Shown: positions 1 through 6,993, counted from the stretch's first letter. The stretch: DNA of 6,993 nucleotides from a virus (IMGVR_UViG_2675903469_000006:1-6993); one strand, 5' to 3'. The notes: generated by a model from the sequence alone, not told the origin. A program made the numbers and translations.

Positions 1-142
1 CCCCTATTAGCGGTTACCAGCGCCCCACCAGACCCGGTGACATCACCCCCCGGATCATGGACGACTGGGGGCAGTAATCATGCCGGGTCTGGCTGGCTAA
101 CACCCCATTATAAGGGGTACGAATAAAGTAACGGGGCGGGAT

Positions 143-340
143 ATGTATCAGATGGAAAAAATATCAACAGGCATTGCCTACGGCACCTCCGCCGGCAGTG
201 CCGGCTACTGGTTTTTGCAGTGGTTGGATCAGGTCAGTCCATCACAGTGGGCTGCGATTGGTGTGCTGGGAAGTCTGCTTCTGGGGCTTCTGACTTATCT
301 GACGAATCTGTATTTCAAAATAAGAGAAGATAAGCGTAAG
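143..340 (+). pseudogene. S: Class II holin (phage 21 S21-like pinholin), N-terminal fragment truncated by IS2 insertion
   Basis: ATG at 143 with a second in-frame ATG at 152 ([10 protein letters not shown]...). The translation [63 protein letters not shown] closely matches the phage 21 S21 pinholin as I recall it. The reading frame runs straight into the IS2 terminal inverted repeat at 341, and the track ORF 143..427 is the resulting chimeric read-through. Confidence 0.85.
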
Positions 341-381
341 TGGATTTGCCCCTATATTTCCAGACATCTGTTATCACTTAA
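341..381. repeat. IS2 terminal inverted repeat (right end, IRR)
   Basis: Imperfect inverted repeat partner of 1631..1671, seen directly in the sequence. Confidence 0.8.
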
Positions 382-1257
382 CCCATTACAAGCCCGCTGC
401 CGCAGATATTCCCGTGGCGAGCGATAACCCAGCGCACTATGCGGATGCCATTCGTTATAATGCTCGAACGCCTCTGCAAGGTTCTTTGCTGCCGTTAACC
501 CGTCTGGTTTGGGCATGATACTGATGTAGTCACGCTTTATCGTTTTCACGAAGCTCTCTGCTATTCCGTTACTCTCCGGACTCCGCACCGCCGTGTTCTT
601 CGGTTCAAGTCCCAACATCCGGGCGAACTGGCGTGTTTCATTAGCCCGGTAGCATGAACCATTATCCGTCAGCCACTCCACTGGAGACGACGGAAGATCG
701 TTGCCGAAGCGGCGTTCCACCGCTCCCAGCATGACGTCCTGTACTGTTTCACTGTTGAAGCCGCCGGTAGTCACCGCCCAGTGCAGTGCCTCACGATCAC
801 AGCAGTCCAGCGCGAACGTGACACGCAGTCTCTCTCCGTTATCACAGCAGAACTCGAACCCGTCAGAGCACCATCGCTGATTGCTTTCTTTCACGGCCAC
901 TCTGCCTGTATGTGCCCGTTTCGATGGCGGTACAGCAGGTTTTCGCTCAAGCAACAGCGCATTCTGGCGCATGATCCGGTAAACACGTTTGGCATTGATC
1001 GCAGGCATACCATCAAGTTCTGCCTGTCTGCGAAGCAGCGCCCATACCCGACGATAACCATACGTGGGCAGCTCTCCGATAACATGGTGTATACGGAGAA
1101 GCACATCCGTATCATCAGTGTGACGACTGCGGCGGCCATCCATCCAGTCATCGGTTCGTCTGAGAATGACGTGCAACTGCGCACGCGACACCCGGAGACA
1201 ACGGCTGACTAAGCTTACTCCCCATCCCCGGGCAATAAGGGCGCGTGCGCTATCCAC
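352..1257 (-). CDS. insD: IS2 transposase OrfB (InsD), DDE integrase-like catalytic domain
   Basis: 301-aa minus-strand ORF inside the IS2 boundaries. Sequence [21 protein letters not shown]...[11 protein letters not shown]...[19 protein letters not shown] is typical of IS3-family OrfB. It overlaps OrfA in the -1 frame. Confidence 0.95.
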
Positions 1258-1580
1258 TTTTTTGCCCGTCCATATTCAACGGCTTCTTTGAGGAGTTCAT
1301 TTTCCATCGTTTTCTTGCCGAGCAGGCGCTGGAGTTCTTTAATCTGCTTCATGGCGGCAGCAAGTTCAGAGGCAGGAACAACCTGTTCTCCGGCGGCGAC
1401 AGCAGTAAGACTTCCTTCCTGGTATTGCTTACGCCAGAGAAATAACTGGCTGGCTGCTACACCATGTTGCCGGGCAACGAGGGAGACCGTCATCCCCGGT
1501 TCAAAGCTCTGCTGAACAATTGCGATCTTTTCCTGTGTGGTACGCCGTCTGCGTTTCTCCGGCCCTAAGACATCAATCAT
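1215..1580 (-). CDS. insC: IS2 transposase OrfA (InsC), helix-turn-helix DNA-binding subunit
   Basis: 121-aa [44 protein letters not shown]... The track ORF begins 15 codons earlier at 1625, but that extension lies inside the terminal inverted repeat; the internal ATG at 1578..1580 gives the canonical 121-aa product. Confidence 0.9.
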
Positions 1581-1630
1581 CTGTACTCCAATGACTAGTC
1601 TAAAAACTAGTATTAAGACTATCACTTATT

Positions 1631-1671
1631 TAAGTGATACTGGTTGTCTGGAGATTCAGGGGGCCAGTCTA
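1631..1671. repeat. IS2 terminal inverted repeat (left end, IRL)
   Basis: Reverse complement matches 341..381 with a few mismatches. Confidence 0.8.
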
Positions 1672-1672
1672 A

Positions 1673-1693
1673 NNNNNNNNNNNNNNNNNNNNN
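1673..1693. other. Assembly gap (run of 21 N)
   Basis: Twenty-one consecutive ambiguous bases immediately after the IS2 end: a scaffold join, not biological sequence. Confidence 0.99.
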
Positions 1694-1797
1694 CGATTGG
1701 TGTGCTGGGAAGTCTGCTTCTGGGGCTTCTGACTTATCTGACAAATCTGTATTTCAAAATAAGAGAAGACAAGCGTAAGGCTGCGAGAGGTGAATAA
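1694..1797 (+). pseudogene. S: Class II holin (S21-like pinholin), C-terminal fragment resuming after the gap
   Basis: In-frame translation [33 protein letters not shown] followed by a stop (TAA 1795..1797), matching the S21 C-terminus. The first 85 bp near-duplicate 256..340 with 2 mismatches. Confidence 0.8.
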
Positions 1798-2294
1798 TGT
1801 CGCCATCATTACGCAAGGCTGTTGCAGCTGCTATTGGTGGTGGGGCTGTTGCTATAGCATCTGTGTTAATCACTGGCCCAGGTGGTAACGATGGTCTGGA
1901 AGGTGTCAGCTACATACCATACAAAGATATCATTGGTGTATGGACTGTATGTCACGGACACACCGGAAAAGACATCATGCTCGGTAAAACGTATACCGAA
2001 GCAGAATGCAAAGCCCTCCTGAATAAAGACCTTGCCACTGTCGCCAGACAAATTAACCCGTACATCAAAGTCGATATACCGGAAACAACGCGCGGCGCTC
2101 TTTACTCGTTCGTTTACAACGTGGGCGCTGGCAATTTCAGAACATCGACGCTTCTTCGCAAAATAAACCAGGGCGATATCAAAGGCGCATGTGACCAGCT
2201 ACGTCGCTGGACATATGCTGGCGGTAAGCAATGGAAAGGGCTGATGACCCGTCGTGAGATTGAGCGTGAAGTCTGTTTGTGGGGGCAGCAATGA
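1797..2294 (+). CDS. R: SAR endolysin (phage 21 R21-like lysozyme, glycoside hydrolase family 24)
   Basis: 165-aa ORF whose ATG overlaps the holin stop (TAATG). The Gly/Ala-rich N-terminus [30 protein letters not shown] is typical of a signal-anchor-release domain, followed by lysozyme-like sequence ([11 protein letters not shown]...[12 protein letters not shown]) very similar to R21 as recalled. Confidence 0.93.
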
Positions 2295-2755
2295 GCAGAG
2301 TCACCGCGATTATCTCCGCTCTGGTTATCTGCATCATCGTCTGCCTGTCATGGGCTGTTAATCATTACCGTGATAACGCCATTACCTACAAAGAGCAGCG
2401 CGACAAAAACGCAAGAGAACTGAAGCTGGCGAACGCAACCATTACTGACATGCAGCAGAGACAGCGTGATGTTAATGCACTCGATGCTAAATACACGAAG
2501 GAGTTAGCTGATGCGAAAGCTGAAAATGAAACTCTGCGCGCTGATGTTGCCGCTGGTCGTCGTCGGTTGCACATCAAAGCAGTCTGTCAGTCAGTGCGTG
2601 AAGCCACCACCGCCTCCGGCGTGGATAATGCAACCAGCCCCCGACTGGCAGACACCGCTGAACGGGATTATTTCACCCTCAGAGAGCGGCTGATGACGAT
2701 GCAGATGCAACTGGAAGGGGCACAGGAGTATATCCGCACTCAGTGCATTAAGTAG
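2291..2755 (+). CDS. Rz: Rz inner-membrane spanin (i-spanin)
   Basis: The ATG at 2291 overlaps the endolysin stop (ATGA). The product [60 protein letters not shown]... has an N-terminal transmembrane helix followed by coiled-coil sequence and is near-identical to lambda Rz as recalled. The track's GTG start at 2279 is less likely. Confidence 0.9.
2511..2693 (+). CDS. Rz1: Rz1 outer-membrane lipoprotein spanin (o-spanin), embedded in the +1 frame of Rz
   Basis: 60-aa ORF lying wholly inside Rz in another frame: [60 protein letters not shown]. It has a lipobox (LVVVGC) and a proline-rich stretch, matching lambda Rz1 as recalled. Confidence 0.85.
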
Positions 2756-2797
2756 CCTTTTTATCGTGGTAAACATTTCGCAGGGTATGAGGTATTT

Positions 2798-3148
2798 ATG
2801 CCATCACTAATCCCACGTGCCTGCCGTAAGCGTGGATGTGCAGGTACAACCACAGACAGTTCGGGTTACTGCGATAAACATCGCGGTGAAGGCTGGGTGC
2901 AGCACCAGCGCGGACTGAGCCGCCACCAGCGTGGCTATGGCTCAAAATGGACGGTGATTCGTGCCCGTATTCTGAAGCGCGATAAAGGTCTGTGTCAGTT
3001 GTGTCTGCGTGTCGGTGTGGTGAGCGAGGCGAAAACCGTCGACCACATCATCCCGAAAGCGCATGGCGGAACAGACGCAGACAGCAACCTGCAGAGTCTG
3101 TGCTGGCCCTGCCATAAAGCGAAAACAGCGCGCGAACGAATCCGGTGA
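2798..3148 (+). CDS. HNH endonuclease (phage packaging-associated; HK97 gp74-like position)
   Basis: 116-aa ORF with GAGG (2789..2792) 5 nt upstream of the ATG. It carries HNH and zinc-binding signatures (C-x2-C ... DHIIPKAHGG ... N ... CWPCH) and sits immediately upstream of the terminase small subunit. Confidence 0.85.
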   Translation: MPSLIPRACRKRGCAGTTTDSSGYCDKHRGEGWVQHQRGLSRHQRGYGSKWTVIRARILKRDKGLCQLCLRVGVVSEAKTVDHIIPKAHGGTDADSNLQSLCWPCHKAKTARERIR

Positions 3149-3166
3149 TAATTATTCTCACTTGTA

Positions 3167-3230
3167 GGGAGGGGCGGGGCAAATCCCTGTGACCTGACGT
3201 CTTCCGGACTGCCCGCCCCATCGTTTTTTT
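3167..3230. other. GC-rich inverted repeat followed by a T7 run in the HNH-terS intergenic region; candidate cos/packaging site or terminator-like hairpin
   Basis: GGGGCGGGGCA (3171..3181) pairs with TGCCCGCCCC (3210..3219) with one bulge, across a loop of about 28 nt, followed by ATCG and TTTTTTT (3224..3230). It lies exactly where HK97-like phages place cos. Any function is inference. Confidence 0.4.
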
Positions 3231-3269
3231 ATACCCGCGAAAAATGAAATTTAACCAGGAGTGCCGCAT

Positions 3270-3764
3270 ATGGCTGGAACGGCGGGGCGTTCCGGGCGTC
3301 GCCCCAAGCCAACGGCGCGCAAGGCGCTGGCCGGAAACCCCGGCAAGCGAGCCCTGAACAAAGATGAACCTGTTTTTACGCCCATCAAAGGTGTTGAGCC
3401 ACCAGAGTGGTTCGCTGAAGAAGATCTCCCTCTCGCCACGATCATGTGGCAACTGACAACCAAAGAACTCTGCGGTCAGGGCCTGCTGTGCGTGACTGAC
3501 CTGGCGGTACTTGAGCGGTGGTGCGTGGCCTATGAGTTCTGGCGACGTGCCGTGAAAAATATTGCCATACAGGGCAACACCATCACCGGTGCAATGGGCG
3601 GCAGGGTCAAAAATCCGGAGCTGACCGCCAAAAAAGAACAGGAGTCCGAGATGAGCAGCACGGGGGCAATGCTCGGACTCGACCCCAGCAGCCGCCAGCG
3701 TCTGATTGGCCTGGCGGGGCAGAAGAAAGCCACTAACCCGTTTCTGAAAATTATCGAATCATGA
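3270..3764 (+). CDS. Terminase small subunit (P27 family / Terminase_4-like)
   Basis: AGGAG (3257..3261) lies 8 nt upstream of ATG 3270; the track's GTG at 3261 is too close to that site. [34 protein letters not shown]... contains the GNPGKR motif typical of P27-family small terminases. The stop overlaps the terL start (ATGA). Confidence 0.85.
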
Positions 3765-5494
3765 GCCGGAAATCTTACCCCAACGTAAATGCTGCAAATC
3801 AGTATGCCCGGGATGTCGTGCGCGGAAAGATTGTTGCCTGCCAGTTTGTGATTCAGGCCTGCCAGCGCCATCTTGATGACCTGATGGCGGAAAAAAGTAA
3901 GTCGTTTCGTTACCGCTTCGACAAGGACCTGGCTGAACGGGCCGCGAAATTTATTCAGCTGTTGCCGCACACCAAGGGGGAGTGGGCATTCAAACGGATG
4001 CCCATCACGCTGGAGCCGTGGCAGCTATTTGTGATCTGCTGTGCGTTTGGCTGGGTCAATAAAGGCACCCGGTTGCGCCGCTTCCGGGAGGTGTACACCG
4101 AAATCCCCCGTAAGAACGGCAAATCAGCAATCTCTGCCGGTGTTGCCCTGTATTGTTTTGCCTGTGATAACGAGTTTGGCGCGGAAGTGTATTCCGGTGC
4201 CACGACAGAGAAACAGGCGTGGGAAGTCTTTCGCCCGGCGCGACTGATGTGTAAACGCACACCCATGCTGACGGAAGCGTTCGGGATTGAGGTTAACGCC
4301 TCAAACATGAACCGTCCGGAGGATGGCGCGCGGTTTGAACCGCTGATCGGCAACCCAGGTGATGGTTCATCACCCCACTGTGCCGTGGTTGATGAATATC
4401 ACGAGCATGCCACCGATGCGCTTTATACCACAATGCTTACCGGGATGGGGGCGCGACGTCAGCCACTGATGTGGGCCATCACCACCGCCGGGTACAACAT
4501 TGAGGGGCCGTGCTACGACAAGCGGCGGGAAGTCATCGAGATGCTCAACGGCTCGGTGCCTAACGATGAACTGTTCGGGATCATCTATACCGTTGATGAA
4601 GGTGACGACTGGACCGGCCCGCAGGTGCTGGAAAAAGCCAATCCAAATATTGGCGTGTCGGTTTATCGCGAATTTTTGTTAAGTCAGCAGCAGCGTGCGA
4701 AAAATAACGCCCGTCTGGCAAACGTCTTTAAAACAAAACACCTCAATATCTGGGTGTCGGCGCGTTCGGCGTATTTCAACTTGGTGAGCTGGCAGAGCTG
4801 CGAGGATAAATCACTGACCCTTGAGCAGTTCGAGGGGCAGCCGTGCATTCTGGCCTTTGACCTGGCGCGTAAGCTGGATATGAACAGCATGGCGCGACTT
4901 TATACCCGCGAGATTGACGGTAAAACGCATTACTACAGTGTGGCCCCGCGTTTCTGGGTACCGTATGACACGGTGTACAGCGTCGAGAAAAATGAAGATC
5001 GACGGACAGCCGAACGCTTTCAGAAATGGGTGGAAATGGGCGTTCTGACCGTTACCGATGGTGCGGAGGTGGATTATCGCTACATCCTCGAGGAGGCCAA
5101 AGCGGCGAACAAAATCAGCCCGGTCAGTGAGTCACCCATCGACCCCTTCGGGGCGACCGGGTTGTCACATGACCTTGCTGATGAAGACCTGAATCCCGTC
5201 ACTATCGTCCAGAACTTCACCAATATGTCCGATCCGATGAAAGAGCTGGAAGCAGCGATTGAATCGGGACGTTTTCATCATGACGGCAATCCCATCATGA
5301 CCTGGTGTATCGGCAACGTGGTCGGCAAAAACATGCCGGGTAACGATGATGTGGTGAAACCCGTCAAAGAGCAGGCGGAAAACAAAATCGATGGTGCAGT
5401 TGCGCTGATTATGGCGGTTGGCAGAGCCATGCTGTACGAGAAAGAAGACACGCTGTCTGACCACATTGAGTCCTACGGGATCCGCTCGCTTTAA
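3761..5494 (+). CDS. Terminase large subunit (HK97-like, Terminase_1 family; ATPase plus nuclease)
   Basis: 577-aa ORF translationally coupled to terS, with a Walker A-like motif (IPRKNGKS) and a long conserved C-terminal region. It is the largest ORF in the window and sits in the canonical position. Confidence 0.93.
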
Positions 5495-5505
5495 CTGAGG
5501 TAATT

Positions 5506-5688
5506 ATGATCATGCTGATTCTCGCGCCTCTGGTGGGCGTGCTGGGTGCGCTTTTGCTGGCGTATGGTGCCTGGCTGATTTATCCCCCGGCGGGTTTTGT
5601 TGTTGCCGGGGCGCTGTGCCTGTTCTGGTCGTGGCTGGTGGCGCGATATCTCGACCGTACACGGCAGTCTGTCGGCGGAGGTAAATAG
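5506..5688 (+). CDS. Small hypothetical membrane protein (about 60 aa, two predicted transmembrane helices)
   Basis: GAGG (5497..5500) lies 5 nt upstream of ATG 5506. [60 protein letters not shown] is highly hydrophobic with a basic C-terminus. Its stop TAG overlaps the GTG of the following portal frame (TAGTG). No family assignment possible from sequence alone. Confidence 0.5.
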
Positions 5689-6844
5689 TGTTCTTTTCGG
5701 GATTATTTCAACGAAAAAGCGATGTGCCGGTGACCACGCCAGCAGAACTGCTGATGCTATCGGGCTGTCATACGACACCTATACCGGAAAGCGGATCAGT
5801 AGCCAGCGGGCCATGCGCCTGACGGCGGTCTATTCTTGCGTCAGGGTGCTGGCAGAGTCTGTTGGTATGCTGCCCTGCAGTCTCTACAAAATCAGCGGTA
5901 CCCTGAAAACACGGGCGGTGGATGAACGACTGCATAAGTTGGTTTCGGCAAAACCTAATGGCTACATGACACCGCAGGAATTCTGGGAGCTGGTTATTGT
6001 CTGCCTGTGTCTACGGGGGAATTTTTACGCCTACAAGGTAAAGGCACTGGGAGAAGTGGTGGAGCTTCTTCCGATAGATCCGGGCTGTGTGGAACCGAAG
6101 CTGAACAGCCAGTGGCAGCCGGTTTATCAGGTGACGTTTCCGGATGGTTCCGTGGATGTGTTGACCCAGAATGAAATCTGGCATGTGCGCACCCTGACGC
6201 TGGATGGACTTGTCGGGCTGAATCCCATTGCGTATGCGCGTGAGGCCATTTCACTGGCAGCGGCAACCGAGGAGCACGGTGCCAGGTTGTTTAGTAATGG
6301 TGCGGTGACATCCGGTGTGTTGCGTACGGAACAAAAGCTCACGCCGGATGCTTACGAGCGTCTGAAGAAAGATTTTGAGGAGTGTCACACGGGGCTTGGC
6401 AATGCTCACCGCCCGATGATTCTGGAAATGGGGCTGGACTGGAAGTCGATGGCGCTGAACGCCGAGGACAGTCAGTTCCTGGAAACCCGCAAGTTTCAGC
6501 TGGAAGAAATCTGTCGTCTGTTCCGGGTGCCGTTGCACATGGTGCAGAACACCGATCGCGCCACCTTCAACAATATCGAAGAGCTGGGGCTGGGATTTAT
6601 CAACTATTCACTGGTGCCGTATCTGACCCGCATCGAACAGCGGATCAACACCGGACTGGTACGAAAAAGTAAGCAGGGCGTTTATTACGCCAAATTTAAC
6701 GCCGGGGCGTTACTGCGCGGGGATATGAAGTCCCGTTTTGAAGCCTACGCCACCGGGATCAACTGGGGAATTTACTCTTCCAATGACTGCCGCGACCTGG
6801 AAGATATGAATCCGCGTCCCGGTGGTGTAATGCCGATCAGTTAA
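5688..6844 (+). CDS. Portal protein (HK97 family), apparently frameshifted near the 5' end and 3'-truncated by IS4
   Basis: The long frame (track 5597..6844) carries a portal-like core (AMRLTAVYSCVRVLAESVGMLP ... through the C-terminus). The only convincing start is the GTG at 5688, with GGAGG at 5677..5681, but it is in a different frame: MFFSGLFQRKSDVPVTTPAEL reads on to a stop at 5820..5822. The conserved frame has no plausible start before M at 5813. The last five codons (VMPIS, then stop) are encoded by the putative IS4 end. Confidence 0.8.
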
Positions 6845-6876
6845 GGATCAGTTGACCGATCCAGTGGCTGTGTAAG

Positions 6877-6912
6877 AATCCGGAAACGCTCACTTGTTTC
6901 CGGATTTTTTTA
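6877..6912 (+). terminator. Hairpin plus T-run (rho-independent terminator-like) just upstream of the IS4 transposase start
   Basis: AATCCGGAAAC (6877..6887), loop GCTCACTT, then GTTTCCGGATT (6896..6906) running into TTTTTTT. It may shield the transposase from read-through transcription. Confidence 0.45.
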
Positions 6913-6993
6913 TGCACATTGGACAGGCTCTTGATCTGGTATCCCGTTACGATTCTCTGCGTAACCCACTGACTTCTCTGGGGGATTACCTCG
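6912..6993 (+). CDS. insG: IS4 transposase (InsG-like), N-terminal 27 codons only; runs off the window
   Basis: ATG at 6912; translation MHIGQALDLVSRYDSLRNPLTSLGDYL. Identification is by recalled similarity and needs a database check. Confidence 0.6.
   Translation, partial: MHIGQALDLVSRYDSLRNPLTSLGDYL

Follow-up and report, generated by a model that had tools for sequence, protein, structure and literature searches.

An 86-nucleotide direct repeat around an IS2 insertion in a phage-21-type holin gene is very probably a scaffold misjoin of two paralogous lysis regions

Lysis cassette and insertion sequences

The described systems closest to the locus analyzed here are (i) the lysis cassette of phage 21, which comprises the S21 pinholin, the signal-anchor-release endolysin R21, and Rz/Rz1 and with which the essD-rrrD-rzpD cassette of DLP12 can be compared, (ii) the insertion sequences IS2 (IS3 family) and ISEc20 (IS110 family), and (iii) the scaffold joins made between paralogous short-read contigs, in which a negative gap is represented by a token run of N. 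Insertions of IS2 and ISEc20 in decaying lambdoid prophages of Escherichia and Shigella are commonplace. We analyzed the viral sequence IMGVR_UViG_2675903469_000006:1-6993, and its full length of 6,993 nucleotides (nt) is referred to below as the window. Its features are listed here by position and strand; X and Y denote the two haplotypes defined further below, and L numbers designate related public sequences.

1-132, minus strand: terminal 132 nt of ISEc20 (IS110 family); the element sits 10 nt ahead of the holin ATG
143-340, plus strand: 5' part of a phage-21-type class II holin, codons 1-66, allele X (G304, T331)
255-340, plus strand: left repeat copy, allele X
336-340, plus strand: IS2 target site GTAAG, left copy of the true 5-bp duplication (L004, L005)
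341-1671, minus strand: complete IS2 (IS3 family), 1331 bp, 99.9% identical to annotated IS2
349-381 and 1630-1662: imperfect terminal inverted repeats of IS2, 79% complementary
352-1257, minus strand: IS2 orfB (HTH_21, rve, and rve_3)
1215-1580, minus strand: IS2 orfA (HTH_Tnp_1)
1258-1264, minus strand: A6G slippery site of IS2 (CTTTTTT; AAAAAAG on the coding strand), in the orfA/orfB overlap
1672, no strand: last base of the left contig, a stray A (G in L004 and L005)
1673-1693, no strand: run of exactly 21 N, the scaffold gap between two contigs, across which the haplotype changes
1694-1779, plus strand: right repeat copy, allele Y (A1743, C1770), with which the right contig begins
1694-1797, plus strand: 3' part of the holin, nt 113-216 through the stop codon, Y allele; the gene is intact in related genomes
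1797-2294, plus strand: endolysin, R21-like phage lysozyme, Y allele (PF00959, E=2e-45)
2291-2755, plus strand: Rz spanin gene (PF03245)
2511-2693: Rz1, embedded in Rz (from the list of open reading frames [ORFs])
2798-3148, plus strand: HNH endonuclease (Pfam match)
3261-3764, plus strand: small terminase, P27-type (Pfam match)
3761-5494, plus strand: large terminase (Pfam match)
About 5687-6844, plus strand: portal (Pfam match)

The lysis genes of the window follow the order of the phage 21 cassette, and the likeness, which concerns the genes alone, includes matches to PF04971, PF00959, and PF03245, the MYQM motif (dual-start) at the beginning of the holin, the overlap of holin and endolysin (holin stop codon, 1795-1797; endolysin ATG, at 1797), and an Rz1 gene embedded in Rz. 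When restored to its 71 amino acids (aa), the holin matches PF04971 with an E value of 1.5e-35 and a score of 121 bits (cutoff, 26). The N terminus of the endolysin, as read from the sequence, is hydrophobic, and relatives of the cassette in E. coli carry the annotations essD and rrrD. Such cassettes are present in a median of 2 and up to 14 places per E. coli genome, and in E. coli RMDEC465 one prophage carries the X allele and another a related cassette; the best match in complete E. coli genomes was at 98.6%. Downstream of the cassette, the packaging module (2798-6844) is 100% identical to the corresponding segments of L007 and L008, and its genes are 93 to 95% identical to those of the Shigella phages SfII and SfIV.

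Unlike in the phage 21 cassette, the X holin is cut by IS2 after codon 66 and is separated from its promoter side by ISEc20. As scaffolded, the X segment reads into IS2 to form a 94-aa fusion ORF (143-427), in which 28 IS-derived codons stand in for the last 5 of the holin, and the X endolysin lies 1.3 kb away behind oppositely transcribed DNA. Since the end of the holin is replaced and the endolysin is separated from it in this way, the X lysis cassette is, judging from its sequence, presumably inactive through the IS2 and ISEc20 insertions.

The IS2 copy closely resembles the described element: it has the same length of 1331 bp, the same orfA and orfB, the A6G frameshift site, and imperfect inverted repeats, and it matches over its full length features annotated as "IS3-like element IS2 family transposase" (99.9%). 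Its transcription is opposite to that of the lysis genes. A complete IS2 insertion is flanked by a 5-bp duplication; in the window, a single wrong base and the gap take the place of the right flank. The copy number of IS2 in E. coli genomes has a median of 4 and a maximum of 41. Of ISEc20, the window holds only the terminal 132 nt, and its transposase was read from the IMG/VR contig L005, which covers window positions 1-1671 with a single mismatch inside IS2 (position 1398). Relative to L001, L004, and L007, this contig has an insertion of roughly 1.45 kb at the ISEc20 site with a 398-aa ORF matching DEDD_Tnp_IS110 (PF01548) and Transposase_20 (PF02371); the element, which contains window positions 1-132, is 99.9% identical to annotated ISEc20. 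An E. coli genome can contain as many as 9 copies of the latter. Shigella sonnei 53G carries both IS2 and ISEc20 (PMC7373316), which, together with the 98.6% match noted above, loosely suggests a Shigella sonnei-like source organism. An Rfam scan of the whole window (E<=1) returned only a chance match to mir-200 and nothing in the ISEc20 end.

Geometry of the repeat and the IS2 insertion site

A repeat finder run on the window identified a direct repeat of 86 nt, with copies at 255-340 and 1694-1779 that are in register and differ at exactly two sites, G304/A1743 and T331/C1770. Both differences fall on third codon positions and are synonymous (ACG/ACA, Thr; GAT/GAC, Asp), and the translations of the two copies are identical. 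By chance, about 2e-40 such 84/86 matches would be expected in 7 kb, and the runner-up among the direct repeats of the window has 29 nt and 72% identity. The leftward extent of the right copy is masked by the N run, which abuts position 1694. A preliminary description of this DNA had reported an 85-bp repeat with two mismatches at 256-340 and 1694-1778; the repeat and its two mismatches stand, but the length is 86 nt, and those coordinates were one base out of register. It had also placed IS2 plus 21 N between the copies, which we confirm with the addition of one base: the copies are separated by IS2 (341-1671), a single A (1672), and 21 N (1673-1693).

We sought the left junction between the holin and IS2 in IMG/VR by an exact scan, which retrieved three contigs (L003, L004, and L005). 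The first of them terminates 22 nt into IS2. The other two are contiguous through the same insertion and contain an IS2 of 1331 bp with GTAAG on both sides, followed by GCTGCGAGAGG. In both, the IS2 end CCAGTCTA directly adjoins GTAAGGCTGCG, without the 86-nt repeat; the junction in full reads ...GGGGGCCAGTCTA and then GTAAGGCTGCGAGAGG, which corresponds to the GTAAG duplication and the last five holin codons. The proposal that the long repeat is not a transposition footprint is thus borne out by these contigs, in which the same insertion is accompanied by a clean 5-bp duplication. GTAAG is present at both ends of the element in L004 and L005, and the base that follows IS2 in them is G, so that the A at window position 1672, the first base of a right flank that otherwise consists of the N run, is a mismatch. 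An origin of this stray A from an IS2 minicircle or tandem junction was considered and found no support.

The junction of holin and IS2 was not found in 5,426 complete E. coli genomes; matches covering 67% of it in E. coli genomes proved to be unrelated essD holins near an IS2. An exact-pattern scan for the left junction was likewise negative in species-representative genomes and in JGI metagenomes, and the scaffold itself did not turn up in the viral, genome, or metagenome collections.

The ends of the two contigs are informative. The right contig starts at 1694, i.e., 49 nt before the first base that discriminates X from Y (1743). The left contig is almost entirely repeat sequence: it consists of 132 nt of ISEc20, 171 nt common to Y, 37 nt specific to X, and IS2. 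Two short-read assemblies that hold Y (L021 and L022) have a contig that runs unbroken through the holin, with 0.7 to 1.2 kb of upstream sequence. We also considered deriving the assembler k-mer size from other contig ends, such as that of L005 (22 nt past its last single-nucleotide polymorphism [SNP]) or the 452-nt contigs described below (repeat overhangs of 122 nt), but the values vary between assemblies and are uninformative for the source of the window.

Haplotypes and independent assemblies

The preliminary description had suggested that two holin alleles were joined in the window and had proposed SNP phasing of mapped raw reads as a check. We phased the SNPs in related public sequences. 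Beyond the two sites in the repeat, the discriminating positions lie in the endolysin gene, at window positions 1828, 1841, (1918), 1981, 1982, and 2015, and they define two haplotypes.

Haplotype X: G304 and T331 with T1828, C1841, C1981, T1982, and T2015 (L001, L004, and L005)
Haplotype Y: A and C at the two repeat sites with the window's C1828, T1841, T1981, C1982, and C2015 (L006, L007, L008, L016, L018, and L020)

The IS-free prophage L001 is prophage A in the chromosome of E. coli RMDEC465, taken from the complete-genome collection, and the Y sequences were drawn from IMG/VR and from chromosomes encoding the exact endolysin protein of the window. Phasing was perfect in these nine independent sequences, and a mixture of X and Y was absent from all contiguous ones. 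In the window, by contrast, the sequence before the N run is X and that after it is Y, and the haplotype changes only there, as expected if two alleles had been joined.

A number of further comparisons agree with this assignment. (i) On the left side, window positions 133-340 are 100% identical to the intact holin of L001, and L005, despite its single mismatch over 1-1671, continues into the X endolysin. The identity of L004 and L005 to the window is only 97.7% past the insertion. (ii) On the right side, the repeat copy is 100% identical in the intact-holin prophages L006 to L008 and L016 to L022, and the holin of L006 to L008, L016, L018, and L020 is intact, with 71 aa, in all. Sequence L007 is 100% identical to the window over 1694-6921 and L008 over 1694-6844, and CP104423 (L016), LR213449 (L018), and CP049183 (L020) show 100% identity over 1694-5294, again with an intact holin; in finished chromosomes, the exact endolysin protein of the window adjoins an intact holin. 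(iii) The X and Y holins do not differ over nt 1-161 (window 133-303). Between 1775 and 2015, X (L001) and Y differ at 5 to 6 sites, and over 2016-2458 they are identical. From about 2459-2530 onward, X-type (L001 and L004) and Y-type sequences diverge completely, and the X backbone of L001 continues with DedA and a different terminase. Because of this complete divergence, the left 1.67 kb of the window is probably not linked to the packaging genes, as far as can be judged from sequence comparison, and the doubt that the preliminary description had cast on this linkage was justified.

We then examined how the interrupted X holin (X::IS2) appears in other assemblies. The 94-aa fusion ORF, looked up by exact match, was present in about 20 samples, 15 of which have this piece as a free-standing contig of 451 to 452 nt (ISEc20, 122 nt; holin, 208 nt; IS2, 122 nt); such a fragment is prone to misplacement. 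In an isolate assembly (GCA_001253355.1), the sequence CXFC01000326.1 (L010) contains the X holin with 705 nt of IS2, a single N, and then a second piece in which 385 nt of normal upstream sequence precede an intact A/C holin and an endolysin. The overlap of the two pieces amounts to about 260 nt in that assembly versus 86 nt in the window. Joins of one kind thus come with different overlaps, and the extent of the duplication is accordingly set by the assembly and not by biology.

The window thus compares well with the described joins of paralogous short-read contigs, in which N are placed between alternative ends, as is the case here; the overlap is set by k-mer size and SNP position, and the same locus is an orphan or is bridged by a single N elsewhere. 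A simple join of unitigs would not account for the length of 21 N and the presence of a whole IS2 within the left contig.

Origin of the repeat and its consequences

Taken together, we consider it very probable that the repeat is an artefact of two paralogous lysis-region contigs set end to end and not a biological duplication. The left contig (contig A, 1-1672) would derive from a decaying prophage X, whose holin was struck twice, by ISEc20 upstream and by IS2 after codon 66; the true X locus would continue from IS2 through the GTAAG duplication and the 5 terminal holin codons to an X-type endolysin. The right contig (contig B, 1694-6993) would come from a second prophage, Y, with an intact holin that shows two synonymous differences from X. 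The stretch over which the two holins are identical (133-303) would create a fork in the assembly graph, and contig B would begin 49 nt, or one k-mer, ahead of the first discriminating base, as at a fork of a de Bruijn graph, that is, 81 nt upstream of the IS2 site in X. By placing B after A with a token N run, the scaffolder would have made these 81 nt and the 5-bp target site appear twice; the length of 86 nt would follow from the 49-nt k-mer overlap and the 37 nt between the first SNP and the insertion site. If so, IS2 would not truly be joined to CGATTGGTG, and the missing upstream part of Y would be ...GTCTGTCGGGGGGGCGGGATATG, up to about holin nt 161. We infer that both copies are present in one genome and that the assembler used a k of about 49; the scaffolder was probably led to its link by read pairs within the stretch of about 1.3 kb over which X and Y are at least 98% identical.

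A strict unitig model with k=49 fails in that contig A crosses the 171-nt shared segment and contains a whole IS2, and some repeat resolution or gap filling must therefore also have acted. Given the identity of X (L001) and Y over 2016-2458, part of contig B may be a collapsed consensus, in which case the order from A to B would be locally correct.

This last point leads to a reading that we regard as possible though somewhat unlikely, namely, that the order is right, with IS2 truly followed by a sequence almost the same as window 1775-2458, and that a repeat collapsed, with the X downstream region merged into Y over 1775-2458 by bubble popping, so that only 1694-1774 (81 nt) and everything beyond about 2530 would stem from the other copy. 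The near identity of X and Y described above (5 to 6 differing sites and then none up to 2458) fits this well, as do the end of the L005 contig at the equivalent of window position 2037, just past the last discriminating SNP, and the small gap estimate of 21 N, which suits a true distance near zero. This reading is, however, nested within the misjoin explanation: the 86-nt repeat would still be an artefact, and the packaging genes would still belong to Y. We consider improbable a mixture of two strains or samples, through contamination or in a metagenome, with X::IS2 from one and Y from the other joined via their shared sequence. The three IMG/VR genomes with X::IS2 yielded no viral contig with the exact Y allele, an observation that counts against our explanation and, together with its converse, in favor of a mixture, and X::IS2 was found in only the 20 or so samples mentioned, as compared with 3085 collection blocks in which the Y endolysin is listed. 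Against a mixture speak the isolate assembly of L010, which unites X::IS2 and an intact A/C holin, and the fact that several such cassettes per genome are normal; the repeat remains an artefact either way.

IS insertions are often polymorphic in cultures, and a single prophage in a mixed population, with IS2 in the holin of some cells only and both versions placed serially, would also set an intact pre-insertion holin beside an IS2-bearing one. A recent polymorphism would, however, give identical flanks, but the copies differ at two sites in 86 nt, each is phased with its own endolysin allele and prophage backbone in nine other sequences, and ISEc20 is located upstream in X and is absent from the Y-type contigs, all of which makes this reading highly improbable. 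Scarcely credible, finally, is a real structure in which the N run stands for 21 true bases and the order is holin 5' part, IS2, about 22 nt, and holin from nt 113 or earlier, produced by recombination of the X IS2 with a second IS2 in the Y holin or by another IS2-mediated rearrangement. Copies of IS2 are abundant and do mediate rearrangements, and in L008 a distance of 4.7 kb separates the Y holin from an IS2 variant upstream of it. Nevertheless, the recombination would require a second IS2 in the Y holin, which is seen in no Y sequence; the start of the right part exactly one plausible k-mer before the first SNP would be a coincidence; and the overlap between these two loci is different in L010. 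We also rejected the notion that the 21 N mask bases that simply continue the holin, because a G, and not the A found at 1672, stands 22 nt upstream of 255, which likewise argues against simple holin continuity in a real structure. Were the structure real nonetheless, it would represent an IS2-mediated hybrid of two resident prophages, in which a dead lysis cassette is fused to a live one.

With the misjoin as the preferred explanation, the feature combines an ordinary artefact of assembly with an equally ordinary insertion of IS2 into a decaying prophage and reveals no new biology. Its relevance lies in annotation. An annotator working from the scaffold would report a holin gene that is duplicated or in fragments and would credit the wrong prophage with ISEc20 and IS2, and the Y prophage, with its SfII/SfIV-like packaging genes, could be read as disrupted in lysis, although its holin is intact in related genomes. 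The locus also provides a worked example of how SNP phasing in related public contigs exposes a scaffold misjoin without recourse to reads.

Insertion elements at the holin of the X prophage

The holin of the prophage allele to the left of the run of undetermined bases (X) was found to be associated with two insertion elements, defining the following features.

Window 1-132: non-coding end of ISEc20 (IS110 family); the element continues at 1793-3252 of L005, an IMG/VR contig contiguous through the same IS2 insertion
Window 143-427: holin-IS2 fusion ORF of 94 aa, in which the interrupted holin reads into IS2 as scaffolded

ISEc20 interrupts a G run located 10 nt before the holin ATG, with its gene for the DEDD transposase oriented away from the holin. 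The X holin was therefore struck by two different insertion sequences, ISEc20 and IS2. The non-coding ends of IS110-family elements encode bridge RNAs; no Rfam match was obtained for the ISEc20 end at 1-132. The fusion ORF, composed of 66 holin residues and 28 IS-derived residues, was called by gene callers in approximately 20 public samples. The predicted fusion protein would keep both transmembrane regions and lose only the charged C-terminal AARGE.

Contig ends, repeats, and further scaffold joins

IS2 and the N run are separated by one nucleotide, an A at position 1672 that ends the left contig, whereas the true junction in L005 and in L004, a second contig contiguous through the insertion, has a G, which is the first base of GTAAG. 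Because of this G, the A corresponds either to a contig-end error or to the flank of another IS2 copy. Additional sequences relevant to scaffolding are the following.

L008 (IMG/VR contig with the right-side allele, Y) 3333-4663: IS2 variant of the Y prophage, in the orientation opposite to that of the window IS2
L010 (CXFC01000326.1, an independent public scaffold) 62-969, N at 970, and 971-1962: holin::IS2 fragment, single N, and intact-holin contig

The IS2 variant is 97.6% identical to the window IS2 and located ~4.7 kb upstream of the holin; L007, another Y contig, starts 65 nt inside it (L007 1-65). This variant is a further repeat with the potential to mislead scaffolding here. In L010, a single N links the same holin::IS2 fragment to a contig in which the holin copy is intact. 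The endolysin of that contig represents a third allele of mosaic type, resembling Y at 1828 and 1841 and X across 1918-2015 (window positions). The Y contig L006 matches the window Y allele perfectly over 311 nt, ending at a single N (~851), beyond which it is unrelated to the window; this break is probably a further scaffold join, within the endolysin gene.

Mosaic block and neighboring genes

Window 2798-3764: HNH endonuclease gene and P27-type small terminase gene

The HNH endonuclease gene is directly upstream of the small terminase gene, which is followed by that of the large terminase. This order is usual in HK97/SfII-like cos phages, and the window is in this respect not unusual. The X and Y prophages have in common a mosaic block of ~1.3 kb that is at least 98% identical (window 133-2530 compared with L004, L007, and L001, the IS-free X prophage of Escherichia coli RMDEC465). 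It runs from ~540 nt upstream of the holin, a stretch that on the Y side is outside the window, through the holin and endolysin genes into the 5' portion of Rz; positions 2016-2458 are identical to L001. X and Y then diverge abruptly at ~2459-2530, inside Rz/Rz1, and this point resembles the kind of recombination boundary that typifies lambdoid mosaicism.
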